Shown here: positions 44,032-60,214 of the stretch, in pieces | How positions within the stretch are numbered: position 1 is the stretch's first letter | Layout: every line of letters begins with the position of its first letter | Virus record (IMG/VR): IMGVR_UViG_3300028844_006278 | Length of the DNA: 64,000 nt | Reading direction: 5' to 3' (one strand) | DNA from: a virus | The notes under the pieces: generated by a model | The model's input: only the letters and a program-made list of their open reading frames with translations | Told to the model about the DNA's origin: nothing | Database searches by the model: none | Program-made: the position numbers and the translations under genes

Positions 44032-44089
44032 GTAACGTATTCTCCAAATGTGGAACATATGTACCTAATAATAGGAACATACACCTTCT

Positions 44090-45010: not shown

Positions 45011-47214
45011 TATACCGCAATGTCCTCTGAGAGGGAGCCGAAGATGTCTTCCGAGAATGTGGGATTGTATGACGTCTTCTCGCGGAGGAAGAGGATAAGA
45101 TCTCCTGTCTTCTTAAAGACATTAAGGAGTGTGTCCTCTAGCTTAGTGAGGTCATCCTTACCGTAACGGGCCTCGAACTCATCGTTATGCCAGTAGAACA
45201 GGAACAGCATGCGACCCACCTTATCCATGCCTACGACCATGTCGGAGATATAATCCTTACGGATCTCCGAGATATCGGCCTTATCGATAAGGCCCTGCAG
45301 GACGCGGACATCGAACACTTCCTTGATCCCCTGCTCGGCAGCCTGCGTGGCCTGTCCGATTACCGTCTCCGGTAGAATAGGGGAATTGTCGGATGCCGAC
45401 GGGGCGGTAAGTGCCTTTCCTTGTCTGGAATCTGTCTCTTCGGTTACTGCTTCTTCCTGAGAAGTAGCAGGACCTCCCATCCACGGCGGCTCGGCATACC
45501 CGTACGCAGCTGTATCGTAGGGTGCGGCGTGTTTGATGAGGTATCCTTTGCAGGAGTTCGGAGCTGAGTGAGCCTCCTTCAGCATCTGCAGGGCCTGGCC
45601 GCCTCCGATTCCGTGCCTCCAGATGAGGTGTTTTATAGCAGCCTCTTTAGAGATTAGCCCTGTGGAGCTCTCTCCGAACAGTACCTGAGCGTTAGAGCCG
45701 GAGCTATGGATACGCAGGTGACGGAGATTGGCCTGCTTGTGGATTACCTGGTGCAGGACCGTCGAGGAGTTCCCTAGAGACACATCACGAGGAGTGTGCT
45801 GCTTGGGATATGCCGGCGTGCGTCCGTCGAACAGCGACCGGCGAGTAAAGATCCGAGTGCCTTCCGGAACAAACAGACGGCCGGTCTCTAGGCGGAGCTG
45901 GGCGTCCGGGCCGACGAACTCTACGCGGACTACACTCGGGCAGGAATCCCCTGCGAATGCTTGGTGACCGTCGGTATATCCCGTACTGTTGCTAACTGTG
46001 ACGGAGAATGATCCGTCGGGATTGCCTTCACGGTTGACGATACGAGTCAGGATAGAGTTCTGAGGGCTCTGGACAAATAGAAGCCCGGTGTCTCGCGCCA
46101 GCCCGGCCAGAATAGTTCGGGAGGCCTTCTTGCCGCCTTGGATGCCTGCCATCTCTTCGGACGTTACCCCGGTGGCCGGTTTACAGTACACGTCGGACGA
46201 GCACTTACTGGTATAGCTCTTCGGGTTGTCTATATCGACAAGACATATCTGCCGATTAGAGGAAGGAGCGAACCTGCGCGAGGTAATGGAGGCCTCGGAG
46301 GTGTGATTAGGCAGAAAGATGATGAATGTCTTAAACGATCCGTCCGACAGTAGGACATCGTACAGGCCCGGGGACGTAGGGTTCTGCAGGACAGAACTGT
46401 CTACCTCCTCTTGGAAGATCTTAGACAGGTTAGTTCTATTGTCCTTCACATAGATACCGTTACGGACTAGCAGCTCCTTCTCCCGATCGGCAAGATCCTT
46501 CGCCTCCTTGGAAGTCATATCGGAGATTACGACAACGTCGTCCTTCTCGGGCTTATCCGGAGTCGAGGCGCAGAAAGCAGCGTGCTTGGCCATTACTTCG
46601 ACCTGACCTGTGTCGTAGAAGGAGAACAGAGAGTTGCTGAAGTCGGTGCTGTTGAGGAAGGTCTCCAAGAAGGAGTGAGACGCCGACTTACCTAGCTTAG
46701 GGATATCCCGGGCCAGGTCTACTGGAGAGAAGTTGGTAGCATCGAGCGCGGCCATCTTTACGGTCATGCGACGCCAAGTGTCCTGATCGATAATAGAGTT
46801 GGCGTCGAAGGATGCTTCCTTGCCTAACGTGACCATGCCCTCATCCAGTATCTGGGTATTCTCCGGAGAGGCCTTATCTATATTCTGGTCGCTAGCTTCC
46901 TCTGCTTGGCCTATCGCTTTCGTGCCCTGCTCTTTTATAGAAGAGATCCAGTTATCGAGAGCCGGCACGAAGATGTCCTTCTGCTTGACGTATATTAGGT
47001 CTAGCCCTTTGATGTCTCCCTTAATGAAAAACACCGGGATGTATAGCCAGAGATTATTGACTACAAACGCGGCAATGCCTACCGCCTTCGTGTCGTCCTC
47101 TGTCTTGTCGATTACCTGGAATCCCACGCGGTGCTCGACTAATGACGGCAGCTTCTCGCTGATCTGGGAATCGGCTAGCTGTCCAAACTTCTGCTCAAAA
47201 CTGACGTCGGCCAT
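45010..47214 (-). CDS. Putative head-internal/core protein, K-x-A rich
   Basis: 734 aa; KEAS, KMAA, KSAS, KHAA (twice), KQAN, KEAA. Confidence 0.7.
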   Translation of the reverse strand: MADVSFEQKFGQLADSQISEKLPSLVEHRVGFQVIDKTEDDTKAVGIAAFVVNNLWLYIPVFFIKGDIKGLDLIYVKQKDIFVPALDNWISSIKEQGTKAIGQAEEASDQNIDKASPENTQILDEGMVTLGKEASFDANSIIDQDTWRRMTVKMAALDATNFSPVDLARDIPKLGKSASHSFLETFLNSTDFSNSLFSFYDTGQVEVMAKHAAFCASTPDKPEKDDVVVISDMTSKEAKDLADREKELLVRNGIYVKDNRTNLSKIFQEEVDSSVLQNPTSPGLYDVLLSDGSFKTFIIFLPNHTSEASITSRRFAPSSNRQICLVDIDNPKSYTSKCSSDVYCKPATGVTSEEMAGIQGGKKASRTILAGLARDTGLLFVQSPQNSILTRIVNREGNPDGSFSVTVSNSTGYTDGHQAFAGDSCPSVVRVEFVGPDAQLRLETGRLFVPEGTRIFTRRSLFDGRTPAYPKQHTPRDVSLGNSSTVLHQVIHKQANLRHLRIHSSGSNAQVLFGESSTGLISKEAAIKHLIWRHGIGGGQALQMLKEAHSAPNSCKGYLIKHAAPYDTAAYGYAEPPWMGGPATSQEEAVTEETDSRQGKALTAPSASDNSPILPETVIGQATQAAEQGIKEVFDVRVLQGLIDKADISEIRKDYISDMVVGMDKVGRMLFLFYWHNDEFEARYGKDDLTKLEDTLLNVFKKTGDLILFLREKTSYNPTFSEDIFGSLSEDIAV

Positions 47215-47268: not shown

Positions 47269-49539
47269 TTACAACCTAACCGGGTCTAGCACTTTAGGAA
47301 CATATGATGTGCCCTCGTGCTTGCTACTGGATCCTAACTGGGCTGCCTCTAGGAATGACTTTTTAAGGCCAAACCCGGATAATCGTACTTTCCAGTCGGG
47401 ATCGCTTCCGAGGACACCCATCGCTCTAACCACGTGCGGCTCGAATCCGGGCCCCTCTTTATGAGTAACAATAGTCTCTACCCCGTTATCTTCCAAATCT
47501 TTCGCAATCTTCGACGTTACTTTAGTACCTATAGAGTAATGCATGGTAGGCTTCTCCAGGTACGTACCTACCGCCCGCTTTGGGCGCAAAGGGTTAGAAT
47601 CCTTACGTGGAATGTACTCACTAGCTAGCTGAGTATATGGAACAATGTCGGATATAGCATATCCCATAACGCCTTCCGGTCGTGTGATTTTAACTTTATC
47701 GAAGAATGCTCTGGACAATACCTCTACATTACGTCTATGCGAGGATACTCCGTTTTTTGTAAGGATCTCGTAGAACTTGTCTTGGAAGTACCGGCGGCCT
47801 TCCCCTAGCCCTTTCGCCTGCGCGATCTCTGCAGGGTTAGGAGTGCCGTCTGTGAGCACATCTCCAGAAGTCACCTCATCTCCCACCTTTACGGTAATAT
47901 TCCGTGTACCTGGAGAGTATTCTGGCTCTCCGTCTATATACACGTACTTGCCTCCTTGAGGGGCGTCTACGATGCGTGTGACCTTGCCGTCTCGTTTAGA
48001 CAGCACTGCGCCTCCCTTGAAAGTCTTAGGAACCTGGACGAATTGGTTTACCTCGTCGAACCCTGACACGTTGGACGTGTTCTCCCCTACCACTCCGCCT
48101 AAGTGCTTGGCGGATAGCGCGAGCTGCTGGGTCATTGGCTCTGATAATACTCGAGCAGACTCGATACCTATGTATGCTCCCATAGGCGGGAACTTATTCT
48201 GATCTCGTTTTCCGGAACACATCTGACATACGCCTTCCGGCATCTGGCAGGTTAGTAGTGACCGGATCATTACTCGCTTGCCTCTCAGGGTAGCGAGATC
48301 TTTACGGGATACGGCAGTATTTCTGGAGATGCCTTCAGTGTCCCGAGAGATGACTGATCCTAGTATCTCGGGGTCATCTCCATCTACCATAAGACCTACC
48401 CCATCTGCCCCGCAGTCCTTCCCGGTAACTCGAATGTGCTGCGACATAGCTGCGAGCTGTTTACCTAGAAATCCTGTCTTGGCCGTTGCGAACTGTACGT
48501 CTGAGTTGCTGACGATAAGGCCGTTCGCTAGTACGAACATATGATCGGGGTGATCTACTTCCAGGTCGTACGTAGGAGTTAGACCGAGGGGCTCCGGATC
48601 ACTCTGCTTCTTTAAGAATCCTGCTTTGGTCCACTCGTCCTTATCTAAGACAAGGGTCTTGTCGCTAACTCTACAGCGAGTCGCCTCTCCGATTGGATTC
48701 ATATCTCCGCCTCGGGTCGCCAGTATCTTGTGATCCGGGGTAGCCTCTATGTATATGGAGGCTCCGCTACCGAAGTGGTATCTGTAGACGACTCTTACGC
48801 CGTTGTAGTGCCTGTCGATAACCTGTACTGGGAATGTATCTCCGGCAGGGCCGGATCCGAGCACCCATTCGCCGGGCCCTATGTCCTCTATACGCTTAAC
48901 AGACGTGTCCGCCATCCGCACCAGAGTGTTGGGAGACAAGCAGTATCCTTTTCGCGACGCGTACGACCCTGCCCAGAACTCCGGACCAGTCACTCCTTCT
49001 CCGTATCCGTGCATTCCAGGGATAGGTACAGGGCGATCTCTGTGGTCTGCTACTAACATGTCGCCGAACAGGAGCTGCGTGAGCTGGGTCGGTGATCCGC
49101 GTAGTCCTTGCTTCACCATCTCCCCGTATGCGTTTGGACGAGTCTCCAGTTCGGCTAGTAGCGTCTTCTGGATAGTCGGCATAGCCTTCTGCATAGTCGA
49201 CATGATCTGCTCGTCCTTCTGCGCTGAAGTCAAGGCGTTGCTCTGAGAGATGGCCCGTATCTTCTCTTGCAGCTGCTTACGATATGCCTTTGTCTTCGGT
49301 GGCAGCCTAAGGTCTGTAAGCCGCAACGAGGATGTTCCTCCGTACTCAGTCGCAACTACCCGGGAGATATCGGAGAGTCTTTTCAGCACCGTCACGTAAT
49401 CGTCCGGGTGCTTCTCTGCTAACTCTTGGAAGAACGCCGACGAAGTCTTCTTGTTTAAGACTCGTCCGGGCTCTCGCATAGACTCGGGGATCGCCTGGTC
49501 TATGAGTATCCTCCCTAGCGTTGTACGGGCAGCGGGCAT
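47269..49539 (-). CDS. rpoC: RNA polymerase beta' subunit, C-terminal half (mini-intein-containing)
   Basis: Start refined to ATG 49539. TTLGR, GLRGS..QL, bridge helix SRKGY|SDVQFATAKTGFLGKQL, Zn site DCG...TCQMPEGVCQMCSG, trigger loop SEPMTQQLALSAKHLGG. Confidence 0.93.
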   Translation of the reverse strand: MPAARTTLGRILIDQAIPESMREPGRVLNKKTSSAFFQELAEKHPDDYVTVLKRLSDISRVVATEYGGTSSLRLTDLRLPPKTKAYRKQLQEKIRAISQSNALTSAQKDEQIMSTMQKAMPTIQKTLLAELETRPNAYGEMVKQGLRGSPTQLTQLLFGDMLVADHRDRPVPIPGMHGYGEGVTGPEFWAGSYASRKGYCLSPNTLVRMADTSVKRIEDIGPGEWVLGSGPAGDTFPVQVIDRHYNGVRVVYRYHFGSGASIYIEATPDHKILATRGGDMNPIGEATRCRVSDKTLVLDKDEWTKAGFLKKQSDPEPLGLTPTYDLEVDHPDHMFVLANGLIVSNSDVQFATAKTGFLGKQLAAMSQHIRVTGKDCGADGVGLMVDGDDPEILGSVISRDTEGISRNTAVSRKDLATLRGKRVMIRSLLTCQMPEGVCQMCSGKRDQNKFPPMGAYIGIESARVLSEPMTQQLALSAKHLGGVVGENTSNVSGFDEVNQFVQVPKTFKGGAVLSKRDGKVTRIVDAPQGGKYVYIDGEPEYSPGTRNITVKVGDEVTSGDVLTDGTPNPAEIAQAKGLGEGRRYFQDKFYEILTKNGVSSHRRNVEVLSRAFFDKVKITRPEGVMGYAISDIVPYTQLASEYIPRKDSNPLRPKRAVGTYLEKPTMHYSIGTKVTSKIAKDLEDNGVETIVTHKEGPGFEPHVVRAMGVLGSDPDWKVRLSGFGLKKSFLEAAQLGSSSKHEGTSYVPKVLDPVRL
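48505..48942 (-). mobile_element. Mini-intein (146 aa, no endonuclease)
   Basis: CLSPNTLV...IEDI; IEATPDHKI; TYDLEV...FVLANGLIVSN, +1 Ser. Confidence 0.92.
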
Positions 49540-49543
49540 AGAG

Positions 49544-50101
49544 TTATCTAAACTTATTATCGATGATGTTACCAAACACGGTGCCGAGGAACGGCACTGC
49601 CTGCCCTACCTCTATCCCCCTATCCTTCCAAGTCCTACCGTCTATCTTACCTGTAAGATGTTTTGCTATAGACATGAGCTTGGCCTTTCTAGTAGGGTCC
49701 TTTTCAGACGTGGCGGCTTCGGTAAGCACTTGGCGGCGAGCGATCAGCGCATTTCGGTGCTTTAGATTAGGTGCCCGAGTCCTTGCTTTTTTAGCATTGC
49801 CCTCGATATCTCCCTGTAGGATTCCTCTCTGGGAGTTGATAAAATCTATCTCTTCCTTAGAGATATCTGACGTGGGGTTGCCTAGAACGTAGTCTTTATA
49901 TTGACCTAAGCTGGATATACCCTTCCGTCTTCCCTGCATGAGCTCCCCTGCTGCAAGACCAACGCCTGCTCCGACGCCACCTCCAATCAGATACTTGTTG
50001 AAGGTCCTATCGGACTCGGGCACGAGCTTGCGGGTTAGCGCGACTCCGATGACAGCGCCGAGCGGGGTCGTAACTAGTGATGGGTTGATTGGATCCTTCA
50101 T
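49544..50101 (-). CDS. Gly-zipper membrane protein
   Basis: PLGAVIGVAL; LIGGGVGAGVGLAAG. Confidence 0.7.
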   Translation of the reverse strand: MKDPINPSLVTTPLGAVIGVALTRKLVPESDRTFNKYLIGGGVGAGVGLAAGELMQGRRKGISSLGQYKDYVLGNPTSDISKEEIDFINSQRGILQGDIEGNAKKARTRAPNLKHRNALIARRQVLTEAATSEKDPTRKAKLMSIAKHLTGKIDGRTWKDRGIEVGQAVPFLGTVFGNIIDNKFR

Positions 50102-50106
50102 CTGGA

Positions 50107-50907
50107 CTACTCCGCGTACTGGCCGAGGGCCCGCAGTACTTGAATAAGGGCGTTATCTTGGTCGGCGGCCTCTAGCTGCTGCGGCATCTCCGTGGGGACC
50201 GGCATGGGCGGCAGTTCTGCCATAGGGGGAAGGGCCTCTGGCATGGGCATCTCGCCTGCGGGCGGAAGTGCGCTTAGGGAGTCCGGTGTCAGATTAGCGA
50301 CGCTTGGAGGGAGCGCAGCCTCCCCTCCCTCTGGAACTGTCTCCGGAACAGAGACGCCCATGGTATTAGCCATCTGGACAAGCAGAGACTCTAGCTCATC
50401 GATGCGGGACTCCAGCTCCTTATTGGTGACTCTGGAAGATTCCTCCTCCTTTGCAGGGGGCTGGGAGGCAGCGGCGGCCTCGATCAGCATCTGCAGATCC
50501 TGTGCCGACAGGGTAACAGGCTGTGCTTCCATGCCTGCCATCCCGGGATCTCCTGGACCGGCAGCTGGCATACCCATCATACTAGGGTCCATCGGAGGCA
50601 TCGGCGGTGCGCCGCCCATCATACTAGGATCCATCATGCTAGGGTCCATCGGAGGCATCGGCGGTGCGCCGCCCATCATGCTAGGGTCCATCGGAGGCAT
50701 CGGCGGTGCGCCGCCCATCATACTAGGATCCATCATGCTAGGATCCATCGGAGGCATCGGCGGTGCGCCGCCAGCTAGTGCGGGATCCTCTGCAGGTGGC
50801 AGGGCACCCATCTGTCCCGGTACTGCTGCTGCTGGCGCGGGAGCTGGGGGGGCGTATGCCTCCTTGGTTAGGTGCATTACTTTATTTAGTAGGTCTTTAT
50901 TCAACAT
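50107..50907 (-). CDS. Pro/Met-rich low-complexity protein with short coiled coil
   Basis: TKEAY then (GGAPPMPPMDPSMM) repeats; ELESRIDELESLL. Confidence 0.75.
   Translation of the reverse strand: MLNKDLLNKVMHLTKEAYAPPAPAPAAAVPGQMGALPPAEDPALAGGAPPMPPMDPSMMDPSMMGGAPPMPPMDPSMMGGAPPMPPMDPSMMDPSMMGGAPPMPPMDPSMMGMPAAGPGDPGMAGMEAQPVTLSAQDLQMLIEAAAASQPPAKEEESSRVTNKELESRIDELESLLVQMANTMGVSVPETVPEGGEAALPPSVANLTPDSLSALPPAGEMPMPEALPPMAELPPMPVPTEMPQQLEAADQDNALIQVLRALGQYAE
50573..50772. repeat. Coding tandem repeat: four 42-nt units plus two extra 15-nt units
   Basis: ccatcggaggcatcggcggtgcgccgcc x4 and catcat(a/g)ctagg(g/a)tc x6. Confidence 0.9.
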
Positions 50908-50947
50908 CGGGATATCTTATGCCTCTTAGGTGATTCGGATATTGCTA

Positions 50948-51478
50948 TTAATTTGAAGTGTACCCCGATATAAATGCGGAAACATTTATTGTCGGCATTT
51001 GAGAAGCGCACTTCCATTTTCTGCGTGCCTTACATATTCTCTTATCAGGAGTCTTTGAGCAATCTATATTATGCATCTTGCGCTGTCCATCGGATCTAGC
51101 GCAGAAGCTCTTTCTTCTCTTAGACGCCGCGCCCCCCTTTTTAACTTTACCTGTGACAGGCGCTTTTAAGTTACTGCCTGGGTTTTCTCTCTCGTAAGAC
51201 TTACGGCCAGCTTCGTTTAGGCCGCCTTCTCTATTCTGTCCCTTCTTACGAGTCCATGCAGGGCTCTTCTTTTTCTTATCCTTAGCCTCTTTGAATGCTG
51301 TCACGAACCTTACAAATTCGTTATCGCTTGAGGCTTTCTTCGCAAACTCCTCCAACTTATCTTCGGACATGCTGTTGGCGATCTCTTTTACCTTATCTGA
51401 AGCGTCCGGGCTCTCTCCTCGCTTATATGCTAGAGCCGCTCCAAAAAGTTTACGCTGATTTTCAGATTTAGCAGGCAT
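50948..51478 (-). CDS. Basic two-module protein (DUF3008-like + DUF6321-like)
   Basis: Start ATG 51478 (GGAGG SD); MPAKSENQRKLFGAALAYKRGE...SMSEDKLEEFA and AWTRKKG...GGLN..GRKSY...RRKSFCAR...RKWKC. Family names from memory, not searched. Confidence 0.65.
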   Translation of the reverse strand: MPAKSENQRKLFGAALAYKRGESPDASDKVKEIANSMSEDKLEEFAKKASSDNEFVRFVTAFKEAKDKKKKSPAWTRKKGQNREGGLNEAGRKSYERENPGSNLKAPVTGKVKKGGAASKRRKSFCARSDGQRKMHNIDCSKTPDKRICKARRKWKCASQMPTINVSAFISGYTSN

Positions 51479-51479
51479 C

Positions 51480-52712
51480 TTACTTCTCTCCTCCATTGAA
51501 CATATCTCTTGATATCCTTAGCTTAGATCCTGGGTCGTATCCGGGAAAATCTTCTCTCCGGCTGTTTATACCCACTGCATCTGCCAAGGACTGTACGAAT
51601 GTGTTGGAGTTTACTCCTCGGCCTAGAATGTTCTTCCATATGGGTGGGTACATGTAGGGATTCTCCCTTTCGTTATATCTGTAGGCTTCCCCAGCCTTTA
51701 GTACTTTACTTATGATGTCGTCGGTGCTCTTCCCTTGGTTGACAGATCTGCTGATGTGCGTCTCCCAGAACTTAGGTAACTTGGGATTCTCCTGTGTTGA
51801 GAAGTACTCTCGAAAAGCCTTTACATCGTTTCCGTAGTTCCTATGGTACCGGAGCCTGCGTCTGCTGAAGAAACTAGGTTTAACATTGTATGCTCCTACT
51901 ATGATGGCAGGAGTGTCTCCGTACTTATCTACCGCATTGCCGAATCTATTGGGATCTTGTGGAACCAATATGAAGAACTGGTGTCTGCCTATAGGGGCCT
52001 TGCCGACGCCTGTGTCCATAGCGACTCTTCTCGATCCTATGTATATGCCGGGATTAAGGTTCTTGCTGTGTACTAGTTCCTTGCCTTTCTTCTTCGCCGC
52101 AGACTTGAATAGCTTCGTAGGCAGGCGGATGTCGTTCCCTATATCGCCCTTGGGGAAATCCTGCCTGCGCTTATCTATGCCTGCCACGTCGGCTAAGGTC
52201 TGTGCGAAGGTGTTAGAGTTAGGCCGCATTCCGAGGAGATTGGGAGCGAGGGCCGGGTAATACACTGGGCGCTTCGCTGTAGATTTCTCGTACGCCTTGC
52301 CTGCAGTCAGCATCCTACGGATAGTGTCGTCAATATCTTTCTTTGGGATAATGGGCCGGCTCAGTACGGGCTTCCAAAAGGCCTTAGACTTGGGGCTGCC
52401 TGAGTGTGTGTCTGTGTACTCTCGGATGGCTGCTAGATCGTCTGGCTCGTTCTGTCGGTACTTGAGACGGGGCCTGGATAGGACCCTTTCCCCCGGGACC
52501 CGGTATCCTCCGACCAATATTCCGCGATTGCCGTTGCCTAGATCGACGTCCAGTCCTTTGAACTTCTCGGGCTTATTAGGCACCATCACGAAGAATTGGT
52601 GGCGGAAGTAGGAGGGGTTCGCCGGGCTGTTCGCATTGGCTACTCGGCGCGTGCCTAGGTATATGCCTGGAGCAAGCGTTCCGGTTTCTATGAGTTTATC
52701 TTGCTGCTTCAT
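51480..52712 (-). CDS. Protein with two tandem permuted-papain-like (H...NSN) domains
   Basis: PGIY.G.RRVA...RHQFF...Y.P...N.LG...NSNTF.Q.LAD..GI..RR.DFP occurs twice. Confidence 0.7.
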   Translation of the reverse strand: MKQQDKLIETGTLAPGIYLGTRRVANANSPANPSYFRHQFFVMVPNKPEKFKGLDVDLGNGNRGILVGGYRVPGERVLSRPRLKYRQNEPDDLAAIREYTDTHSGSPKSKAFWKPVLSRPIIPKKDIDDTIRRMLTAGKAYEKSTAKRPVYYPALAPNLLGMRPNSNTFAQTLADVAGIDKRRQDFPKGDIGNDIRLPTKLFKSAAKKKGKELVHSKNLNPGIYIGSRRVAMDTGVGKAPIGRHQFFILVPQDPNRFGNAVDKYGDTPAIIVGAYNVKPSFFSRRRLRYHRNYGNDVKAFREYFSTQENPKLPKFWETHISRSVNQGKSTDDIISKVLKAGEAYRYNERENPYMYPPIWKNILGRGVNSNTFVQSLADAVGINSRREDFPGYDPGSKLRISRDMFNGGEK

Positions 52713-52719
52713 ATGTCTA

Positions 52720-55700
52720 CTATTCCAGTATGGTGATGGGGTCGTCTATTGCTATCTTACCTGACCTATACGCCTTTCTTGCATCGGCCACGGTATTGAA
52801 TACAGCGGCTGTCTTATCTGCAGGAGCCTTGGTAGCTAGATATAGCCCCTGCAGATATTCATTGGAAAGCTTATACGATGCCTGTCCTGATCGGGCGGAG
52901 ATTAGATTGCGGTCCGGCATCATGCGGTCGACCACTTGGGATACCGCCTCGTCCGAGACAGGAACGGTGAATGACGCTGTGTCTCCGTCATAGTCCATGG
53001 CGAATGGCCCTACAATGGCCGGAGGCACTTGGACGGTAGATCCTTTTACGAGTACCGGCCAGAATCCCATGACACTGTACTTGTGTAAGGTAGGCGCCCG
53101 ATTTAAGATGACAGGGCGCTTGGTGATAACAGACTGCAACGACTTGTACGCTAGGGGTGAGTGATCTTTGACCGCTGTTGCAGCCTCTGTGGCAGGGACG
53201 CCCTGTCGCACAAGGTCTCGGATAACAAACGGCTCGTATAGATTCCAAGCAAGCTTCTCTGGGATGCCCGCTTGGTTGAGTAGAAGGGACGGATTAGGTG
53301 CGACTACGCCTAGTCCCGACATATCGATATTAGTCCCTAGAACTCGGCGCTGAATGAAGCCTGTCTTCGGACTTCCTTTTCCGAATATGTGCGAAAGGAT
53401 GCCCTTTACGTTCTTCTGTACGAGCTGATCCTTCTTCGGATCGGATACACCGATGAGAGCCTTGTAGCTATCCCATAGATCTCTTCGAGCATCGTTACGC
53501 ATATCTGCCGGTAGTCCCTCTGTCTCGTTATAGTCGGAGATAGACTCCACTAGAGACTTATACAGGTAGTTCGGGTCGGCCACCATCGTCATCCCTCCCT
53601 GTGCTGATATAGGACGGAACCGAGGCGGAAGTACCGGAACTCGGGTCATCATGAAGTCCGATGGCTTCACCTTGTTAGTTTCGAAAGCATGTAGGAATCG
53701 GAACTTTTTTACAGCATCGTCGCGCTTAGATCTGATGCCGTGCTTTATCTCGTGCAGCGCCTTGGCCTTTTCTGCCTTGACGTCGATTCTACCTAGCTTG
53801 TCGGCTAGAGCGTCCTCTCCGGAGGCCACTAAATCCTCCATCTCGGTTCTTTTTAGGCCCAATATACGCCGTATAGGGTCTACCATGATAGGGTTAGGCA
53901 TGGCCGTAGGGAGGTCAATGTATGCCCATCTGTCGCCGTTAGCCGAGCTTCCGGTAGCGTCGGGGTCAAATAGGCCTCCTGGGATGGGCTTAAGACCTTT
54001 TGCTGTATATGTATCACCGGTAGAGATCTTTCTATTTCCGGTAAGGTCTTTTGCCTGTTGGTTGGTCATAGAGAATATGTCGTCGGAGAACGCGCCTTCC
54101 GACAGATGTACTCCGCCTGCTCTGAGGAGGTCCTTAAACTTCTCGTAGACTAGCGGAGTCTTCGGCATGGTAGGGGTCTGTCCCAGCTTCAGCTGACGCC
54201 AGAACATATCGTTCTTCTGCCCCTTGATGAGCTTCATGTCCTTGAGGACCTCTGTCGCCCCGTGTGCTAAAAGAGCCTCTTGGTACATCTTGCCTAGGTG
54301 TTTAGCGCCTGTCTTGCCTCCCTTGGCCGGCTGGTCCTCTGCTGTGTACTTAGCCTGTGATCTGGACTTGCCTTTACCTTCGGACGTATGCTGCATCTTG
54401 TAGAAGTACGTCACTCCGGTAAATATCTGGGGGATCTTCTTCCCGGTTCTCGGATCTACTAGGTCCTCTCTATCGGATAGTCTATTCTTCTGGAGCTCGC
54501 TATGGGTGAACTCTATCATGTCTTCGTCTGAGAATCCCGGTAAGACGTAGGGCTTGCCTGTCTTCTCTGCGATCTTGCCTAGCTGGGCCTCTAGCTTCTG
54601 TGCCGGGTTAGTTCTGCTGACTACTCCCAGGGGAGACAGTATGACGTCCATCTTTCTGCCCTTAGGGTCCGTCGGCATCTCAGAGTCCTTGATCACCTTA
54701 GAGATTACGCCCTTGCCGCCGTGCCGCATGGCCAGTTTATCTCCTACGCCCATGGGTATGTTCGTACGGACATTGATGTAGTACTGCTCTTTGCCTTCGG
54801 TCGCGTCTGTGACTACTCCGGGGTGTCTCTTCTCCCACAGCACTGCCTTGTTGGAGCGCATGCGGCGGCCAAGGGATCCACCGGCATGCGGATCCTGCTC
54901 GGACATCGCCAGAGCAAGCGGATCTCCATATCGTACGACCGATCCGGGCTTTATCATCCCCGTCGTTTCGTCGATCTTAGCGAGCTGCTCTTTATTGAAG
55001 GCGGCGGGGAAATTAGCTCTGAACTTATCCTTAGAGACAGACAGGTCCTTTTCCTTCTTGAACTTAGCATGATACATATGCTCTGACGTGAGCTTCTTAG
55101 CTGCCGTCTCGGATATAACAATGGCATCCTCGAACACCAGTCCGTCATAGTTCCAGTACGCTACGCGGAGATTAGTCCCGAGGGCCGCTACTCCCTTATC
55201 GCTGGTGAAGTTACTGGCTGCGAGCATGTCGCCCTTCTTCACCTTGTCTCCGGCCTTTACTAGGGCCTTGTTGCGGATGTACGTGGATCGGGCATACGGA
55301 AAGTTCTCGTACAGATCCACGGATCCCTCGGATCCGTCCGCATAGGTTAGGTCTACTCTATTCTTGCGGACGGCCTTAACTGTGGCGTCCCTAGAGGCGC
55401 GCACTGCTCCGAGATGGCCGCCTATGCGTCTCTCCATGCTGGTGCCGCTTCCGGGATCGGTAGTTCTTACTAGCGGAGCCTCTCTGCTCACCAGAGGAAG
55501 TGCCTGGGGCCCAAATTTCGAGCCCATTAATAAACGCATTCCCTTATCTCCGGATTTCAGAGGAACCAGGTTAGCCCCATCGCTAAACATATCATCGTTG
55601 TTCGGTACGACGTAATCGATGTCTTCACGCTTTACCCATGCCATGCCCTTATTAGGCACCATCGCAATTACGTAGGGGTCTGTGTTCTTCTGGAATCCCG

Positions 55701-57168
55701 GCCATGTCAGGTTCTTTCTAGCGGCCTCTCGGATCCCTACCCACTTCTCCTTACCTGTACGGGCATCTATGAATTTAGAGTACAGCTGACGGTCGGGGCC
55801 TCTACGTACGTTGCGCGACATCTTCATATCTACGCCGATCTTTAAGCTTTCCGGAGCACGAACTGGATCAATGTAATTCAGGTACGTGGGCTGTACGCCT
55901 CGGGCCTCTTTAGGGACAACATCTACGCTAGTCATCGCGCCCTCGCCTAGGCGTAAGATCCGCTGGTTCTGGTCGTACATGTCTAGCGGATTGATCTCTT
56001 CGATGGGCTGAGCCATCCCTGAGCTGACAAACAGATGCTGTACGTGTTTATCGAGAGGGGCGGTAGGTACTGCAGATATGTCTCCGTTCTTCTTTGAGAC
56101 TTTCCATAGGATCTGTCGCAGCACTCCGTTCTGGTCGTTGGCTACCTTGTCACTAAGGAAGTCCGATATATCCCAGACGTCCTGGAACTCTAACGAATCC
56201 CTACTGTCGGAGTCTTCGTCTCCTTTGGCAACCCGCAGGATCTTCCCGGTAGCCGACATAATAGCCTCTGGAGAAGCGTTGGTGTGATCCTCTCCGAGAG
56301 TAACCCTAGTGACCCGGGGGTTGAGTCCGATTTTACCGAACTCTTCAGTAAGTCCTTCCCGGACCGTGTCGTTGTATAGGGAGGACACTGTCGACCCTGT
56401 CTTCTGCTGTAAGAGCTGTGCAACTACAGGCCCTGCCTTGGCGTCCAGTGCTATGGGCGCTGCCGGTGCATCTGGCTCTGGGGCAACTGCGAATCCTTTT
56501 AGGAAGTTGACTGCGTAGGGAGACTTCTCTAAGGTCCTGTTCTTCTCCGCGATGTCTTTTCCCCACTGCGCCTCGATATCTTCGTGCTGCTTACCCATGG
56601 CCCGGAGGATAGGATATAGCGGAAGCTTACGGTTCTTATACTTCATGTAGAAGAAAGACGTCGACGGCTCCATGTATATACGGAAAGAGGGCCCGGACCG
56701 TGGAATAGCGTTGAACTGGGCCTCTATGTTCGAGTCATCCGTTACGCGCGTGTATATTCCTGAGTTGAGACGAAGCTGCTTCGCTACAGTGTATTCCGTG
56801 CCGTTACGTACGTACGTGCCTCTGTCTGTAAGGTACGGCACGTTTATGATAGTCTTCCGGCCAGTTCTGCCTAGCGACTTGCCTGTCTCCTTATCGATAA
56901 CCTCCCACCGACCTGTCACCTTATCGCTAAGTGTCCGGCCCTCTAGGATCGCGTCCTTCTGCTGGGACAGCGAGTATCTACCTTTAGGCTTAGCGTACGC
57001 GACGTCTGTGGCCTTTAGCATGTATCTGTCGTTTTCGGAAAACGCTGATTGCTCTACTGAAGACAGGACCTTCTTTCGAAGATCGGTTCGTACTGAATCG
57101 TAGTCCGTATAATTTAGGAGACCGGTACCATCTGAGAAGTCCGGAGCAGGAGAAGGCATCTCAGGCAT
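52720..57168 (-). CDS. rpoBC: RNA polymerase beta subunit fused to the N-terminal half of beta'
   Basis: Beta: GTYVRNGTEY, DPVRAPES, FEDAIVISE, GDKLAMRHGGKGVIS, SPLGVVSR. Beta': GGLFD, VPVLPPRFRP, LNRAPTLH, AMDYDGD. Confidence 0.96.
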   Translation of the reverse strand: MPEMPSPAPDFSDGTGLLNYTDYDSVRTDLRKKVLSSVEQSAFSENDRYMLKATDVAYAKPKGRYSLSQQKDAILEGRTLSDKVTGRWEVIDKETGKSLGRTGRKTIINVPYLTDRGTYVRNGTEYTVAKQLRLNSGIYTRVTDDSNIEAQFNAIPRSGPSFRIYMEPSTSFFYMKYKNRKLPLYPILRAMGKQHEDIEAQWGKDIAEKNRTLEKSPYAVNFLKGFAVAPEPDAPAAPIALDAKAGPVVAQLLQQKTGSTVSSLYNDTVREGLTEEFGKIGLNPRVTRVTLGEDHTNASPEAIMSATGKILRVAKGDEDSDSRDSLEFQDVWDISDFLSDKVANDQNGVLRQILWKVSKKNGDISAVPTAPLDKHVQHLFVSSGMAQPIEEINPLDMYDQNQRILRLGEGAMTSVDVVPKEARGVQPTYLNYIDPVRAPESLKIGVDMKMSRNVRRGPDRQLYSKFIDARTGKEKWVGIREAARKNLTWPGFQKNTDPYVIAMVPNKGMAWVKREDIDYVVPNNDDMFSDGANLVPLKSGDKGMRLLMGSKFGPQALPLVSREAPLVRTTDPGSGTSMERRIGGHLGAVRASRDATVKAVRKNRVDLTYADGSEGSVDLYENFPYARSTYIRNKALVKAGDKVKKGDMLAASNFTSDKGVAALGTNLRVAYWNYDGLVFEDAIVISETAAKKLTSEHMYHAKFKKEKDLSVSKDKFRANFPAAFNKEQLAKIDETTGMIKPGSVVRYGDPLALAMSEQDPHAGGSLGRRMRSNKAVLWEKRHPGVVTDATEGKEQYYINVRTNIPMGVGDKLAMRHGGKGVISKVIKDSEMPTDPKGRKMDVILSPLGVVSRTNPAQKLEAQLGKIAEKTGKPYVLPGFSDEDMIEFTHSELQKNRLSDREDLVDPRTGKKIPQIFTGVTYFYKMQHTSEGKGKSRSQAKYTAEDQPAKGGKTGAKHLGKMYQEALLAHGATEVLKDMKLIKGQKNDMFWRQLKLGQTPTMPKTPLVYEKFKDLLRAGGVHLSEGAFSDDIFSMTNQQAKDLTGNRKISTGDTYTAKGLKPIPGGLFDPDATGSSANGDRWAYIDLPTAMPNPIMVDPIRRILGLKRTEMEDLVASGEDALADKLGRIDVKAEKAKALHEIKHGIRSKRDDAVKKFRFLHAFETNKVKPSDFMMTRVPVLPPRFRPISAQGGMTMVADPNYLYKSLVESISDYNETEGLPADMRNDARRDLWDSYKALIGVSDPKKDQLVQKNVKGILSHIFGKGSPKTGFIQRRVLGTNIDMSGLGVVAPNPSLLLNQAGIPEKLAWNLYEPFVIRDLVRQGVPATEAATAVKDHSPLAYKSLQSVITKRPVILNRAPTLHKYSVMGFWPVLVKGSTVQVPPAIVGPFAMDYDGDTASFTVPVSDEAVSQVVDRMMPDRNLISARSGQASYKLSNEYLQGLYLATKAPADKTAAVFNTVADARKAYRSGKIAIDDPITILE

Positions 57169-57175
57169 GAGTTAT

Positions 57176-58261
57176 CTACGCTCCCATTAACTCTGAGTAC
57201 AAATCCTGCGATGCGGTGTCGCCTAGTTCGGAGGGAATTAGAGACTGTCCTTTATCCGCGGCCGCGATGGCGGCCCGTCCTGTCGGTATTGCCGTATGTA
57301 TGCTCTCCTTCTTTACTGCTCCTGCCTCGGATGAGGAGGGGACCTCGGGAAGATCTGACGCGTCCAGGATGACGGGAGCGCCTGTCTGCTTCTGCCGAGA
57401 GCTCATGAGCTTTTTCAGATCCTTCATACGTCCTCGAGCGGGATCTTGCTTGTCGGAGTAGGTCTTCATAGCCTTATAAGAGAACGCAAATGCGAACGTA
57501 GCCCACAGCCACCAGAAATTAGCTACCGCTTGTGGGTACCGGGTCGGGGATGTTAGTGTATCGCCTATAGACGGGTTCTGTTTTTCTATATCCGCTGCGT
57601 GGATAGTGTCTGCTGCCTTCTTCTGGCTGCCCATTCCCTTTACGCGCTCGTACTCTTCGTGGATCATCTTATCGACTTTGTTTTTAGTACTGGCGATGCT
57701 TGTGTCTAGCTGCTCTCGACGCTGGGCGTCCTCAGCATAGTCCGCAAGGCGCCATCCGCCCGCAGTCGCTGCAAATACGGCAGCCGTGGCTAGGGCCAGA
57801 TGAGCCGGATCGTGCTTACCGGAGGATATGTCGTCCAGGAATCGGCCTGTTGTACCTGCTACGCCTTGTAAGAGTCCACTAGCCTCCTTCTGCCCTTCGC
57901 CTAAGAGGCGGTCCTCTAAGGCCTCCTCCTCTTCCAGATCAGCAGCGTCGGGGTCGATAGTAAATGTTGGATACTTGCCTGAAGAGTAGGCCTTAGCGTC
58001 TGCTCTCCTTCTCTGCAGCTCCTGGTTGATTCCGAGCTCTTCAGCCTCTTTTAGCTTGTGTAGCTTGCGAAGTACGAACGCGAGTCCGCCGTAGCCTATG
58101 CCTAGGCCTCCTGCATGCAGGAGGGCCTTCTTTGTCGGACTCGCGTCCGGGGAGACTATAGTCCGATCGAAGGCGACGGGATTGAAAAAAGTATTGAGGA
58201 CGCGGGCCATGTCGTCCTTGGCCGCCTTCTTTTGCGTATCGGTATTAGAGTCTGTAGGCAT
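57176..58261 (-). CDS. Membrane protein with three hydrophobic segments and K-x-A motifs
   Basis: QKKAA, QKEAS and QKKAA each precede a hydrophobic helix module. Confidence 0.75.
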   Translation of the reverse strand: MPTDSNTDTQKKAAKDDMARVLNTFFNPVAFDRTIVSPDASPTKKALLHAGGLGIGYGGLAFVLRKLHKLKEAEELGINQELQRRRADAKAYSSGKYPTFTIDPDAADLEEEEALEDRLLGEGQKEASGLLQGVAGTTGRFLDDISSGKHDPAHLALATAAVFAATAGGWRLADYAEDAQRREQLDTSIASTKNKVDKMIHEEYERVKGMGSQKKAADTIHAADIEKQNPSIGDTLTSPTRYPQAVANFWWLWATFAFAFSYKAMKTYSDKQDPARGRMKDLKKLMSSRQKQTGAPVILDASDLPEVPSSSEAGAVKKESIHTAIPTGRAAIAAADKGQSLIPSELGDTASQDLYSELMGA

Positions 58262-58330
58262 TCTATGGGCTCTCGGTATCGTATATGAATGTTGAAAGGA
58301 GTTCGGGGCTGCACTGCCCTATGTCTAACA

Positions 58331-58346
58331 TAGAACACGTATGCTA
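58331..58346. promoter_or_regulatory. Palindromic motif copy TAGAACACGTATGCTA (14/16)
   Basis: In the ~105-nt intergenic gap upstream of 57176..58261 and the RNAP gene. Confidence 0.6.
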
Positions 58347-58365
58347 AATTGTAACCGATGTATGT

Positions 58366-58926
58366 CTACGTCGTATCGGGGCTATCGTCGTCCGGAATCT
58401 GCTGGAGGGCCTGCATCAGACCGTCCATAGCGTCCTGGGCTGTATGGTATCGGCTACCGCTATCGTCCAGCTCCGGGGGAGAGAATTTATCCGAGGGGGT
58501 CCGGGTATCTGTCTCGGGCATTACTTTCTTCTTAGGCTCTTTTGCGGTACCGGCCGTGGCGTTCTCTACTGCCTTAGGCGGGGCGAAGTAGTGCTCCATC
58601 CATCGCATAAGTACGCGCCAGCTTTTGATGTCGTTGTCGTACACCTTCTCCTCGAACGAGATGGTGGCCAGGCTGTCGCAGACTTTCTGTCCTACAGCCC
58701 GGTACTGCTTCATGTCTTCCTCATTACTGAGGTCGAACTGTGCGCAGCAGGCGTTGCTCTTTAGCTGAGGCTTTAGATCGTCAGCATCGTCTTCCTTAAA
58801 TGGGTGCGGTTGACCTATGTATGGCAGCCCGCCGTACTCGTATCCCTTTCCATAGTCCCGCAAAGCCCCGTAGGACTTTAGTGGGGACATAGCGCTGAAG
58901 GGATTAAATGCGGAGCGCTCGTGCAT
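58366..58926 (-). CDS. Hypothetical protein
   Basis: 186 aa; FDLSNEEDMKQY...WRVLMRWME. Confidence 0.7.
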   Translation of the reverse strand: MHERSAFNPFSAMSPLKSYGALRDYGKGYEYGGLPYIGQPHPFKEDDADDLKPQLKSNACCAQFDLSNEEDMKQYRAVGQKVCDSLATISFEEKVYDNDIKSWRVLMRWMEHYFAPPKAVENATAGTAKEPKKKVMPETDTRTPSDKFSPPELDDSGSRYHTAQDAMDGLMQALQQIPDDDSPDTT

Positions 58927-59269
58927 TGCTGCCTCCTTTCTTGGTCTCTTCGTCTATCTCTGCCTGTACCTTACGGCGAGCCACGTCCGTCTCCAGCTTA
59001 CGGAGATCGGAAAGCTCGATGGCTTTCTGGACTGTCTTGAAGTCCAGCTTTGACGGGGAGGTTATTCTAGAATGTATGTGGCCTCCGAAGCCGCCTGCAA
59101 TTGCCGGGAGGACCAGCATATAGGGTAGGAGCTCTCCGGCAGAGGTTATCCCGAGTTCCAGTGCGTTGCCTACGACGTCTGCGAGTCCTGCTTTCTTCTC
59201 TATAGGGCTAGTCTGCGGCTCTATGTTGGCGTAGCCTCCGGAGAAGCCTAAGTATGTATCTGCGTTCAT
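58904..59269 (-). CDS. Small membrane protein with leader motif
   Basis: YLGFSGGY...EKKAG; LLPYMLVLPAIAGGFGG. Confidence 0.7.
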   Translation of the reverse strand: MNADTYLGFSGGYANIEPQTSPIEKKAGLADVVGNALELGITSAGELLPYMLVLPAIAGGFGGHIHSRITSPSKLDFKTVQKAIELSDLRKLETDVARRKVQAEIDEETKKGGSNARALRI

Positions 59270-59700
59270 TATTCCCCAAACTCCGTAAATATTCCTGTAC
59301 TGATAAGTGCGCCGGCTATCGCTCCTGCTGCGCTTAAGCGCTTAGAAACTATAGTCGGTAATGAAAATAGTGAGGATGCGGCACGGCCGAAAAGATACCC
59401 TGCTCCTCCGCCAGCGCCAGCTGTGACCGCGCTTTGCATTAAGGATCCCCCGCTTGTAAAGCCGAACTTCTTCTTCTCAGCTTTCTCGAATATCGCAGAA
59501 GCTATATCCTTCTGGGTGATGGATAGGTATGGATCTCCTTTGATGATCTGTAGGCTCTCTGAGATCGGAACGCTCTTAGATTTAAGAGATATGTCCTCGT
59601 TCATCATGTACGAGGCATCCTTCTCCAGCAAGTGCATCCACGCCAGATCCCCGGCAGATGCGTATCCCTTCTTATATCCCGCAGACTTGCTCATCGTCAT
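59269..59700 (-). CDS. Small Gly-zipper protein with leader motif
   Basis: KSAGYKKGY...EKDAS; AGAGGGAGYLFG; AAGAIAGALI. Confidence 0.7.
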   Translation of the reverse strand: MTMSKSAGYKKGYASAGDLAWMHLLEKDASYMMNEDISLKSKSVPISESLQIIKGDPYLSITQKDIASAIFEKAEKKKFGFTSGGSLMQSAVTAGAGGGAGYLFGRAASSLFSLPTIVSKRLSAAGAIAGALISTGIFTEFGE

Positions 59701-60191
59701 CGCCTCATATCTTGGTAGGTTCGGCTGACGTCGTAAGCGACAGGAGCGTTTGCTGCTGTTCGTTTGTGGGCGTTCCGCTTCCTATCAAAGACTTCTTTGT
59801 ACTTCGTCTTATAGGACGGGTCTACCAAGCTCTGCAGGGCTCGACCTGTGCCGGCGGATGTATCGATGTGTTTGAGTATCGGATACGCCGCTCCTGCTGC
59901 ACCGCCGAGAGTAGCGGATATGCGGCTAATCGTCTGCACTGTGCCGTCTTCTTCTAGCTTACGTAGGGCTTCGGCCCTCTTATCCGGAGGTACTCGGATG
60001 AGTAGCGTTTTAACTAGTCCGTCCGTAAGCTTCTTTGCAGCGAAGTGTCCGCCAACTGCTCCGAGCGATCCCAGGATGGCCGATTCTGCCCAAGGTGCCT
60101 TGTCCGTAAAAGACTTATATCCTCGCATCGCGCCCTGGGCTGCCGATGACGCTGTGTCTATCCAGTTGGTTTTTGCAGGTGTTGTACTCAT
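59697..60191 (-). CDS. Small Gly-zipper protein
   Basis: AILGSLGAVGG; LGGAAGAAY. Confidence 0.7.
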   Translation of the reverse strand: MSTTPAKTNWIDTASSAAQGAMRGYKSFTDKAPWAESAILGSLGAVGGHFAAKKLTDGLVKTLLIRVPPDKRAEALRKLEEDGTVQTISRISATLGGAAGAAYPILKHIDTSAGTGRALQSLVDPSYKTKYKEVFDRKRNAHKRTAANAPVAYDVSRTYQDMRR

Positions 60192-60214
60192 AGTGATTCT
60201 CTCCTACAAAGTAG

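Follow-up and report, generated by a model that had tools for sequence, protein, structure and literature searches.

The locus between positions 47269 and 57168 raises the question of how beta and beta', subunits of a cellular-type RNA polymerase (RNAP), are partitioned between phage genes, and whether the resulting enzyme is carried in the virion. The window (the whole 64,000-nt stretch of DNA that was analyzed) belongs to a complete phage genome of 165 kb. The original prediction held that beta runs without a stop into beta' at ~54070-54110, placing both catalytic barrels in one chain. Both parts of this claim were borne out by gene P0001 (52720-57168, minus strand), a single ORF of 1482 codons without a stop, whose translation carries Pfam matches to Rpb2_6 (residues 629-950, E 8e-46), Rpb1_1 (residues 1159-1264), and Rpb1_2 (residues 1345-1413) in the same 1482-aa chain.

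The beta module of P0001 occupies residues 1-1023 (54100-57168, minus strand). By phmmer, it matched Thermus beta with an E value of 7e-60 over residues 85-752 and onward, and cyanobacterial beta could be aligned up to residue ~1016. The beta double-psi barrel motif GDKLAMRHGGKG, which corresponds to the conserved basic motif of bacterial-type beta (GDK..RHG.KG), lies at residues 809-820. At residue ~1024, the end of beta (GVHLSEG) is followed without a linker by the start of beta' (AFSDDIF), which puts the junction motifs at nt 54073-54114 (minus strand; residues 1019-1032), matching the predicted interval. When the junction segment alone was used as a phmmer query against the PDB, beta' was recognized only from query residue ~165, and the first ~70 beta' residues were recognized only through the family alignment, in which the junction is conserved, and through the structure model. 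That model, made with AlphaFold (AF2), covers residues 600-1482 and is continuous and confident across the junction (pLDDT 86.8). In VIA alignments, model residue 425, equivalent to P0001 residue 1024 (1024/1025), aligns with beta' residues 3-16, and the end of the chain aligns with E. coli beta' 552 and with cyanobacterial gamma 558-560.

The beta'N module (residues 1024-1482; 52723-54099, minus strand) corresponds to beta' ~3-552 in E. coli numbering. It retains the RVPVLPPRFRP motif as well as the region of the clamp helices and the triad of Mg-binding residues. The Mg loop MDYDGD, the counterpart of NADFDGD, lies at residues 1391-1396 (nt 52981-52998), and D1392, D1394, and D1396 are invariant, together with other core residues, among the 55 sequences of alignment A1. 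The four-Cys Zn ribbon at the N-terminus of beta' is absent, there being 0 Cys in the whole 1482-aa chain, and the region from GGLFDP to W-Y-I-L is shortened across the whole phage family in the alignment. The enzyme as a whole keeps its catalytic motifs and its second Zn site and has lost the N-terminal Zn ribbon.

The remainder of beta' is encoded by P0122 (47269-49539, minus strand), a 756-aa precursor recognized by Pfam (Rpb1_4/Rpb1_5) and PDB alignments. Its ORF extends over 47269-49575 and opens with RTTLGR; translation probably begins with the ATG at 49539, matching the recorded call for the protein, and position 3 aligns in the profile with E. coli beta' 570. As had been proposed, the split lies just before TTxGR: TTLGR opens chain 2, and the break falls ~55-60 residues upstream of the gamma C-terminus. 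PDB alignments place the bridge helix, a four-Cys Zn site, and the trigger-loop region in beta'C. The Zn-site cysteines are invariant in alignment A2 and at least 90% conserved in alignment A3, and 66 of 67 intein-free homologues have exactly four Cys. The ORF list shows four ORFs of 410, 182, 266, and 185 aa (49544-52712, minus strand) between the fusion gene and beta'C, in agreement with the claim that the second half lies five genes downstream. No informative family was found for these four, only the 182-aa ORF having family matches (DUF3008/DUF6321); the 410-aa and 266-aa ORFs contain no cysteine.

The P0122 precursor is interrupted by a 146-aa segment (48505-48942, minus strand), which is flanked by RKGY and SDVQFATAKTG and enters the bridge helix at its N-terminal end. 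This segment has a Pfam Hint match below the cutoff (E 4e-5), is skipped by the PDB alignments of beta'C, constitutes a precise indel relative to ~606-610-aa homologues, and forms an all-beta domain between the two bridge-helix halves in an AF2 model. It has the features of a class 1 intein, with Cys1 (CLSPNT...), TPDH in block B, a terminal Asn (...VSN), and Ser at +1. The penultimate residue is Ser rather than the usual His, and the same Ser is found in five aligned mini-intein homologues; inteins without a penultimate His exist. Sixty-seven of 120 beta'C clusters are intein-free at ~590-640 aa, and the flanks RKGY and (S/A)DVQFATA are conserved. By these sequence features, the insertion is a class 1 mini-intein with predicted splicing, which would leave a mature beta'C of about 610 aa. 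An 863-aa protein in the genome also carries an intein; we considered and rejected a prohead protease assignment for it, as the Atlas leads were weak (0.84-0.85) and its exteins have no Pfam family. The original prediction made no mention of the intein or the Zn-ribbon loss, nor of the missing alpha and omega genes and the fully fused sister group described below.

We consider it probable that P0001 and P0122 make up a two-chain, bacterial-type phage RNAP core that is likely packaged and has a layout ancestral to a large phage family. Chain 1 is a minimal beta that continues directly into beta' residues ~3-552. Chain 2 would be made as the 756-aa precursor, from which the mini-intein must splice out for the bridge helix to become continuous, and in its mature ~610-aa form would contribute the bridge helix along with the Cys4 Zn site, the trigger loop, and the clamp's C-terminal portion. 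A more far-reaching version, which we hold to be possible but doubtful as a whole, would make the enzyme a new, third lineage that exists as a single set, depends on sigma, works without alpha or omega, is essentially Cys-free for storage in the capsid and threading through the tail, matures by intein splicing of the bridge helix and perhaps by cleavage by a head protease at a K-x-A site in a beta loop that can be dispensed with, and descends from a single-chain beta-beta' ancestor that split from the bacterial enzyme before the sampled bacterial phyla radiated.

The RNAP genes had been placed inside the head module, and their surroundings agree. Upstream lies the gene for a 622-aa portal (62631-64000, minus strand, running to 64499 beyond the window), which matched the gp204 portal of the cultured Salmonella phage Arash by tblastn (E 1e-53) and is syntenic in relatives. 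A major capsid protein candidate (36752-37735, minus strand; phrog_2522 major head protein, E 1e-6) is encoded downstream. Directly after beta'C is the gene for a 734-aa protein (45010-47214, minus strand) that keeps this position in relatives and shows weak similarity to gp218, a virion protein of Arash. From the portal through RNAP, beta'C, and the 734-aa protein to the major capsid protein, the gene order is kept both in relatives with the split and in fully fused relatives, a sister group with beta and all of beta' in one chain of 2023-2262 aa (2.0-2.3 kaa). The RNAP genes, which lie between those for the portal and the major capsid protein in all relatives, are a fixed part of a portal-to-capsid module, with the qualification that nearly all of the genome is encoded on a single strand, which makes module membership weaker evidence than it would be in a mosaic genome. 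The fusion chain and five neighboring ORFs contain 0 Cys, compared to a genome mean of 1.77%, and 46 of 60 homologues of the fusion chain also have 0 Cys.

Virion mass spectrometry is available for Arash. In that report (PMC10585845), gp206 (the fusion) gave the most spectra (3516) and gp216 (beta'C) gave 1210, which puts both chains among the best-detected proteins of purified virions, and a sigma was also detected. The same study assigns 116 of 272 proteins to the virion, ribonucleotide reductases among them, and its authors remark that abundant late proteins may co-purify. Because nonstructural enzymes are listed and co-purification is possible, the Arash data are no proof of packaging. The same two-chain RNAP might instead be made during infection for middle and late genes and not be packaged, on the model of the non-virion RNAPs of phiKZ/AR9 or N4 RNAPII, with the Arash virion signal explained by co-purification. 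Beyond the nonstructural enzymes and the authors' own caution, the number of gp206 spectra per residue exceeds half that of the capsid protein, which is implausibly high for a packaged enzyme, and each genome has only one RNAP set, encoded among late genes, which leaves no obvious enzyme to transcribe the middle genes. However, the portal-capsid position is kept across about 30%-identity divergence, with the fully fused sister group included; the 0 Cys of the fusion chain, its neighbors, and a sigma-like protein is difficult to account for if the enzyme is purely cytoplasmic; and an enzyme expressed late could get its own expression under way only after host RNAP had read the whole genome. We regard a non-packaged enzyme as unlikely. 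The RNAP is likely packaged, judging by analogy with the relative's proteome, by synteny, and by the absence of cysteine; the best support comes from the published mass spectrometry of the 30%-identical Arash orthologues, conserved portal-RNAP synteny, and the lack of cysteine, none of which the original prediction had cited. The packaged enzyme would most likely be held in the head and ejected with the DNA, where it would start host-independent early transcription.

The packaging argument had also drawn on K-x-A motifs, and this part is only partly supported and is weak for P0001. The variable Ala/Pro-rich insert in beta defined by alignment (residues ~229-262; 56383-56484, minus strand) ends in QQKTGS, so that P0001 itself reads K-T-G, whereas close relatives have K-x-A at the aligned site; only 25 of 59 relatives have K-x-A within the insert. 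The insert is a possible protease site. Plain K.A was mildly enriched in the head block (99 observed vs. 77.5 expected). A narrower motif, K[ETKQSDM]A[SAG], occurred 25 times there vs. 7.9±2.7 expected, with no shuffle as high, and 18 times vs. 12.4 in the remaining genome; because this motif was defined post hoc, its excess in the head block is suggestive only. We rejected K-x-A as evidence of RNAP processing. We also took as chance the KTAAVF common to the RNAP C-terminus and a 506-aa neighbor, which is unconserved in relatives.

Searches of the complete genome with the Pfam models for alpha and omega (PF01000, PF01192) gave no match, while the controls were positive. Divergent alpha/omega analogues could hide among the unannotated neighbors. 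The genome contains two divergent sigma-like ORFs, and the clamp-helix region is kept in beta'N. One is a 238-aa sigma-70-family protein with 0 Cys (17569-18285, minus strand), which scored over the Pfam cutoffs for Sigma70_r3 (26.3 bits) and r4 (25.6 bits) and below the cutoff for NCBIfam FliA/WhiG (1e-9); its sequence marks it as a candidate initiation factor of the phage's core enzyme. The failure of Pfam to detect a phage alpha or omega, the bacterial type of the enzyme, and its retained sigma-binding clamp-helix region would also fit a core that recruits host alpha, omega, and/or sigma, i.e., a host-dependent replacement of beta/beta' and not an autonomous enzyme. We find this improbable, as the phage encodes its own sigma-like proteins, the family occurs with hosts as different as Salmonella and Vibrio and on contigs from many habitats, ~30% identity to any host beta/beta' makes conserved alpha contacts doubtful, and once beta and beta' are covalently fused, the chief reason for needing alpha is gone. 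E. coli RNAP with beta tethered to beta' is functional, which likewise speaks against dependence on host subunits. For the two-chain phage core that we favor, the covalent joining of beta to beta' probably stands in for the assembly platform that the alpha dimer provides, and promoters are probably recognized by the phage's own divergent sigma-70-like proteins.

The fusion architecture is common to >120 homologous 90%-clusters. A junction-spanning query matched 874 50%-clusters at E<=1e-10, and among the matches listed, 150 of 150 50%-clusters span the junction; all of the full-length homologues (59/59) terminate in one and the same alignment column. Both the fusion and the break point are conserved in at least 150, and probably in ~870, 50%-identity clusters. 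The two-gene layout is also present in cultured phages, namely Arash and the Vibrio phages D69, D148, and D181. Searched by megablast, 50,697 phage records gave no match to the region, and relatives are detectable only at the protein level. Many relatives are binned in MAGs of unrelated phyla, including DPANN archaea; we rejected these bins as host evidence and read them as mis-binned phage contigs.

In a concatenated tree (LG+G4, quick search, rooted with two DPANN archaea), the phage family was monophyletic and fell outside 21 bacteria from at least 9 phyla, a sampling without Firmicutes, Actinobacteria, Cyanobacteria, Gammaproteobacteria, and Campylobacterota. The phage clade had an SH-aLRT of 100 and a stem of 0.70, and support for the bacterial clade was 100. 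The phylogeny called for by the original prediction thus refutes a recent bacterial capture as far as the sampled bacteria go, while the predicted likeness to bacterial enzymes is supported by the Thermus match and by 27-31% identity to bacterial rpoB/rpoC. That the fusion is an artifact or a decaying gene, through misassembly or as a frameshifted rpoB-rpoC recently captured from a bacterium, has a negligible probability, since it has in its favor only the general point that bacterial rpoB and rpoC are adjacent and would be fused by loss of a stop codon, whereas hundreds of independent assemblies and the genomes of cultured phages show the same junction and C-terminal end, the AF2 model stays confident across the junction, no bacterial rpoB/rpoC is more than 27-31% identical, the phage clade lies outside the sampled bacteria, and the catalytic residues are invariant. 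The fusion and re-split are real and define a large phage family. The split layout and the single-chain beta-beta' sister phages would be one gene fission, or one fusion, apart.

The family offers a naturally minimized bacterial-type RNAP, with two chains and about 2,090 residues in total, in a phage with no alpha or omega gene, and its cultured members, Arash and D69, open the way to structural and biochemical work. The partition of beta and beta' is not fixed, since the two occur as one chain or as beta+beta'N plus beta'C, and this variety bears on the origin of the cellular two-subunit core and the role of alpha. The bridge-helix intein would make activity dependent on protein splicing. If packaged, the enzyme would provide a third route to host-independent early transcription, beside the single-chain enzymes of N4/crAss and the multi-chain enzymes of phiKZ, and proteins that are ejected could then be recognized by a simple sequence marker, their complete lack of cysteine.

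Among known systems, the closest are Arash gp206 + gp216 (OQ632216; PMC10585845) and phages D69/D148/D181, which have the same two-gene architecture with the same break point (a 1525-aa fusion and a ~606-aa beta'C), with a portal lying just upstream and a genome that includes sigma genes. This group is only ~30% identical to the present enzyme, the beta'C of Arash and D69 is without an intein, unlike P0122, and Arash has more genes between the halves, some on the other strand. The beta+beta'N / beta'C layout seems to be undescribed, although a cultured relative has been annotated: the recorded annotation of the fusion is "RNA polymerase subunit beta" in Arash and "hypothetical protein" in D69, and the accessible portion of the Arash paper (PMC10585845) does not mention the fusion.

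Helicobacteraceae and Wolbachia have a natural RpoB-RpoC fusion (cited in PMC7483510, after Zakharova 1999 and Lane & Darst 2010), in which, as in P0001, the beta C-terminus is joined to the beta' N-terminus in one polypeptide. That fusion includes the whole of beta' (about 2,900 aa), alpha and omega are present, and the fusion genes are ordinary members of their own bacterial clades, whereas the phage clade lies outside the 21 sampled bacteria. P0001 is not a complete fusion of this kind, as its beta' is cut at ~552 and the Zn ribbon is missing; the single-chain phage sister group is the closer analogue of the Helicobacter form. In cyanobacteria and plastids (RpoC1/gamma + RpoC2), beta' is likewise in N-terminal and C-terminal pieces, and the best Foldseek matches of the beta'N part were gamma chains. 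However, the phage chain ends at gamma 558-560 of 615-624, so that the cyanobacterial break comes after the TTxGR segment and the phage break before it. In the phage, moreover, other genes separate the two, beta is fused to the N-terminal piece, and beta'C has ~610 aa, compared to ~1,320 aa for the PDB's cyanobacterial beta' chains.

Deep-branching phage RNAPs from metagenomes, to which the original prediction had pointed, do exist in the mReC metagenomic Caudovirales (Weinheimer & Aylward 2020, PMC7481178); these enzymes and the beta' of Rhizobium Kleczkowskaviridae are bacterial-like, deep-branching, and phage-encoded, as is the present enzyme. Their architecture is different, with a separate beta (999-1563 aa), a whole beta' (902-1038 aa), and a T4-type capsid and portal in mReC (PMC7481178, Supplementary Data 2) and a whole 1127-aa beta' in the replication module of RHph_Y65 (Kleczkowskaviridae), which did not join the fused clade in the concatenated tree. 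The present genome gave no match to the Gp23-type capsid protein (PF07068), and we rejected membership of the present family in the mReC clade on gene lengths and capsid type. The phiKZ/AR9-like jumbo phages (PMC7598289, PMC7824862) also encode two-barrel RNAPs with beta' split into N and C parts and no alpha or omega, and one of their RNAP sets is packaged in the virion. Their enzymes are markedly divergent from cellular RNAP (PMC7598289, PMC7824862), with beta split too (4-5 chains), two paralogous sets, and no sigma (PMC7824862), whereas the present phage has one set, a beta that is fused instead of split, and sigma-like genes of its own.

The two RNA polymerase (RNAP) genes belong to a 164,893-bp record that has terminal repeats and is rated complete; the window covers bases 54565-118564 of it, and nearly all genes of the record lie on the minus strand. 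The larger gene, at 52720-57168(-), has 1482 open codons, in which Pfam identified the beta barrel (Rpb2_6, residues 629-950) and the beta' barrel (Rpb1_1 at 1159-1264 and Rpb1_2 at 1345-1413). When compared with PDB chains by phmmer, residues ~85 to ~1016-1035 of this fusion chain matched bacterial beta (Thermus, E 7e-60) and residues 1094-1480 matched bacterial beta'. The remainder of beta' (beta'C) is encoded by an ORF at 47269-49575(-) with Pfam Rpb1_4/Rpb1_5 matches; its recorded gene call starts at an ATG at 49539, yielding 756 aa, and this start also abolishes the overlap with the upstream ORF. Four ORFs (410, 182, 266, and 185 aa) separate the two genes, in agreement with the earlier placement of the second half five genes downstream. 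The 410-aa protein (51480-52712(-)) appears to consist of two tandem ~200-aa copies (NPGIY.G.RRVA...HQFF..VP...), has a weak DUF3750 match, and has a partly conserved counterpart behind the RNAP gene at locus L009, a homologous locus from the prokaryotic genome set. The 266-aa protein (50107-50907(-)) is mostly repeats such as GGAPPMPPMDPSMM, with no cysteine and no family.

The position given for the junction in the original prediction was correct. Beta ends with ...GVHLSEG and beta' begins with AFSDDIF... (residues 1019-1032, nt 54073-54114). AlphaFold2, run on residues 600-1482 with 55 homologues, gave a model that was confident through the junction (mean pLDDT 86.8, pTM 0.71), and VIA-align placed model residue 425/426 (1024/1025 of the chain) on beta' 3-16 of Thermus, Mycobacterium, cyanobacteria, and E. 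coli, with Z of 21-22.6 and about 450 residues aligned for the beta'N superpositions; beta therefore joins beta' without a linker. The last residue of the chain fell on E. coli beta' 552, M. tuberculosis 637, and cyanobacterial gamma 558-560. Since beta'C opens with ...RTTLGR and its position 3 aligns to E. coli beta' 570 (profile of 49 homologues), the break lies between E. coli beta' ~552 and ~568. The C-terminus of cyanobacterial gamma (615-624 aa) comes roughly 55-60 residues further on, bearing out the earlier view that the split resembles the cyanobacterial/plastid one but occurs at a different site.

An assembly artefact as the origin of the fusion is ruled out, because both the fusion and its end point recur. 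By word-index search, more than 120 clusters were found to combine beta and beta' domains (35-90% identity, ~1450-1530 aa, longer where inteins are present), and every chain in a 59-sequence alignment ends 0-7 residues from one common column. An exhaustive search of representatives of 50% clusters with a 201-residue junction-spanning query gave 1017 matches at E<=1e-3, 874 at E<=1e-10, and 211 at E<=1e-30; among the matches listed, 150 of 150 crossed the junction. The same two genes are present in cultured phages, namely Salmonella phage Arash (gp206/gp216) and Vibrio phages D69, D148, and D181.

The fusion chain contains the beta motif GDKLAMRHGGKG and, in its beta' part, the DYDGD triad, which is invariant across the phage family. 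It lacks the N-terminal Zn ribbon of beta' and any cysteine in its 1482 residues. The C-terminal Zn site keeps its four cysteines, which are invariant in alignment A2 and conserved at 90% or more in alignment A3, and exactly four cysteines occur in 66 of 67 intein-free beta'C homologues. One RNAP set is present in the phage genome. Pfam detected no alpha or omega in this genome, which carries two divergent sigma-70-family ORFs: one at 17569-18285(-), in which regions 3 and 4 both exceed their Pfam cut-offs and which matches NCBIfam FliA/WhiG at 1e-9, below the cut-off of that family, and an ECF-like ORF of 164 aa outside the window (whole-genome G000:C1 ~159,700-160,200(-)). The former adjoins baseplate genes in a structural region.

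The original prediction overlooked a 146-aa mini-intein in the beta'C gene (nt 48505-48942). PDB alignments skip from ...SRKGY to SDVQFATAKTGF..., corresponding to the bacterial ARKGLADTALKTA bridge-helix segment, and exactly this stretch is absent from 67 of 120 homologous beta'C clusters (~590-640 aa); other clusters contain a mini-intein or a larger intein that includes a homing endonuclease. Its Hint match is below the Pfam threshold; it has Cys first, TPDH (block B), VSN last, and Ser next. In the structure that AF2 predicts for the precursor (pLDDT 81.9), residues 200-345 form an all-beta domain flanked by helices 185-195 and 350-365. The bridge helix cannot be intact in the precursor, so that splicing should be needed for activity. 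Inteins and homing endonucleases abound in the family, with inserts at several different sites: 53 of 120 fusion-chain and 49 of 120 beta'C clusters exceed the intein-free length, and Cys immediately follows RKGY in only 11 of those 49. A second intein in the window, ~376 aa long and containing a LAGLIDADG domain (nt 40867-41994), interrupts an 863-aa protein (39925-42516(-)) whose gene immediately precedes acidic scaffold-like ORFs and the capsid gene. The exteins of this protein match no Pfam family, and there are weak language-model leads to prohead proteases.

We scanned one genome per prokaryotic species for the origin of the enzyme and recovered phage contigs in MAGs of many unrelated phyla (32-47% identity) and genuine bacterial rpoB-rpoC (27-31%). 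Family contigs (L012-L029) occur in MAGs named Lentisphaera, Gemmataceae, Treponema, Anaerolineales, Pacearchaeota, and Aenigmatarchaeota; these labels probably reflect mis-binning and give no basis for host assignment. Recent capture from a bacterial phylum, the alternative raised in the original prediction, is rejected for any sampled phylum, because the phage family (support 100, stem 0.70) lies outside a single clade of the 21 bacteria (support 100). The tree (1416 concatenated beta + beta'N columns; IQ-TREE, LG+G4, SH-aLRT) included 41 phage rows, bacteria of at least nine phyla, two archaea as root, and one Rhizobium phage beta'; branch depth is to be read with its simple model, DPANN root, and several missing major phyla in mind. 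The order among phages, bacteria, and Rhizobium phage beta' lacks resolution. Split-type enzymes are monophyletic (support 97), and their sister group consists of six MAG-binned loci (L019, L020, L022, L023, L026, L027) with beta, beta'N, and beta'C in one ORF of 2023-2262 aa (Pfam-confirmed for three), also preceded by a portal gene; the sequence of these loci reads through the split family's stop point (...G, then ..TT.GR...). The two forms differ by one fission or one fusion, which the tree does not polarise.

The RNAP genes stand between the portal (62631->64499; Arash gp204, E 1e-53) and a major capsid protein candidate (36752-37735, phrog_2522), and distant relatives retain the order portal, RNAP, beta'C, 734-aa protein. 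According to the Arash report (PMC10585845), mass spectrometry of purified particles gave gp206 the top spectral count (3516), with gp216 at 1210 and a sigma factor also detected; the list of 116 proteins includes ribonucleotide reductases, and its authors caution that abundant proteins may co-purify. A new observation is the cysteine pattern. Besides the fusion chain, cysteine is absent from its neighbours at 50107-50907, 51480-52712, 57176-58261, 60215-61114, and 61153-62634, and from the sigma-like ORF (genome mean 1.77%); 46 of 60 intein-free fusion-chain homologues also have none, and five bacterial beta/beta' pairs have 17-32. We interpret this pattern as selection acting on proteins that exist for a time extracellularly and undergo translocation in an unfolded state, and the cysteine-free ORFs may together encode proteins that are packaged or ejected. 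The cysteine-free run spans 50107-62634 (ORFs of 266, 410, 1482, 361, 299, and 493 aa), and a 786-aa ORF at 21158-23518 is cysteine-free as well. The earlier packaging argument from K-x-A sites is weaker: a motif chosen after inspection is ~three-fold enriched in the head block; the aligned RNAP insert site reads K-T-G, with K-x-A there in just 25 of the 59 relatives. Neither Pfam nor the language-model leads on the 863-aa protein allowed a head protease to be assigned. KTAAVF, shared by a 506-aa neighbour (42538-44058) and the fusion-chain C-terminus (52720-52830), is probably chance, being unconserved in relatives.

These results confirm and extend the predicted layout, and the enzyme is best read as a predicted two-chain phage RNAP that would be matured by intein splicing, work with sigma, and probably be carried in the virion. 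It differs from the mReC clade (PMC7481178), which has separate beta (999-1563 aa), whole beta' (902-1038 aa), and T4-type capsid and portal; no Gp23-type capsid protein was found in this phage genome. Rhizobium phage RHph_Y65 has a whole beta' of 1127 aa in its replication module, and phiKZ/AR9-type enzymes (PMC7824862) have beta and beta' each split, two sets, and no sigma. In the incompletely accessible literature we found no paper describing the beta+beta'N / beta'C layout, and the architecture appears undescribed even though its cultured members have been sequenced and, in part, characterised. Fusions of beta with beta' have precedents in Helicobacteraceae and Wolbachia (PMC7483510), and the enzyme is a variation on known things: phage multisubunit RNAPs, beta-beta' fusions, and split beta'.
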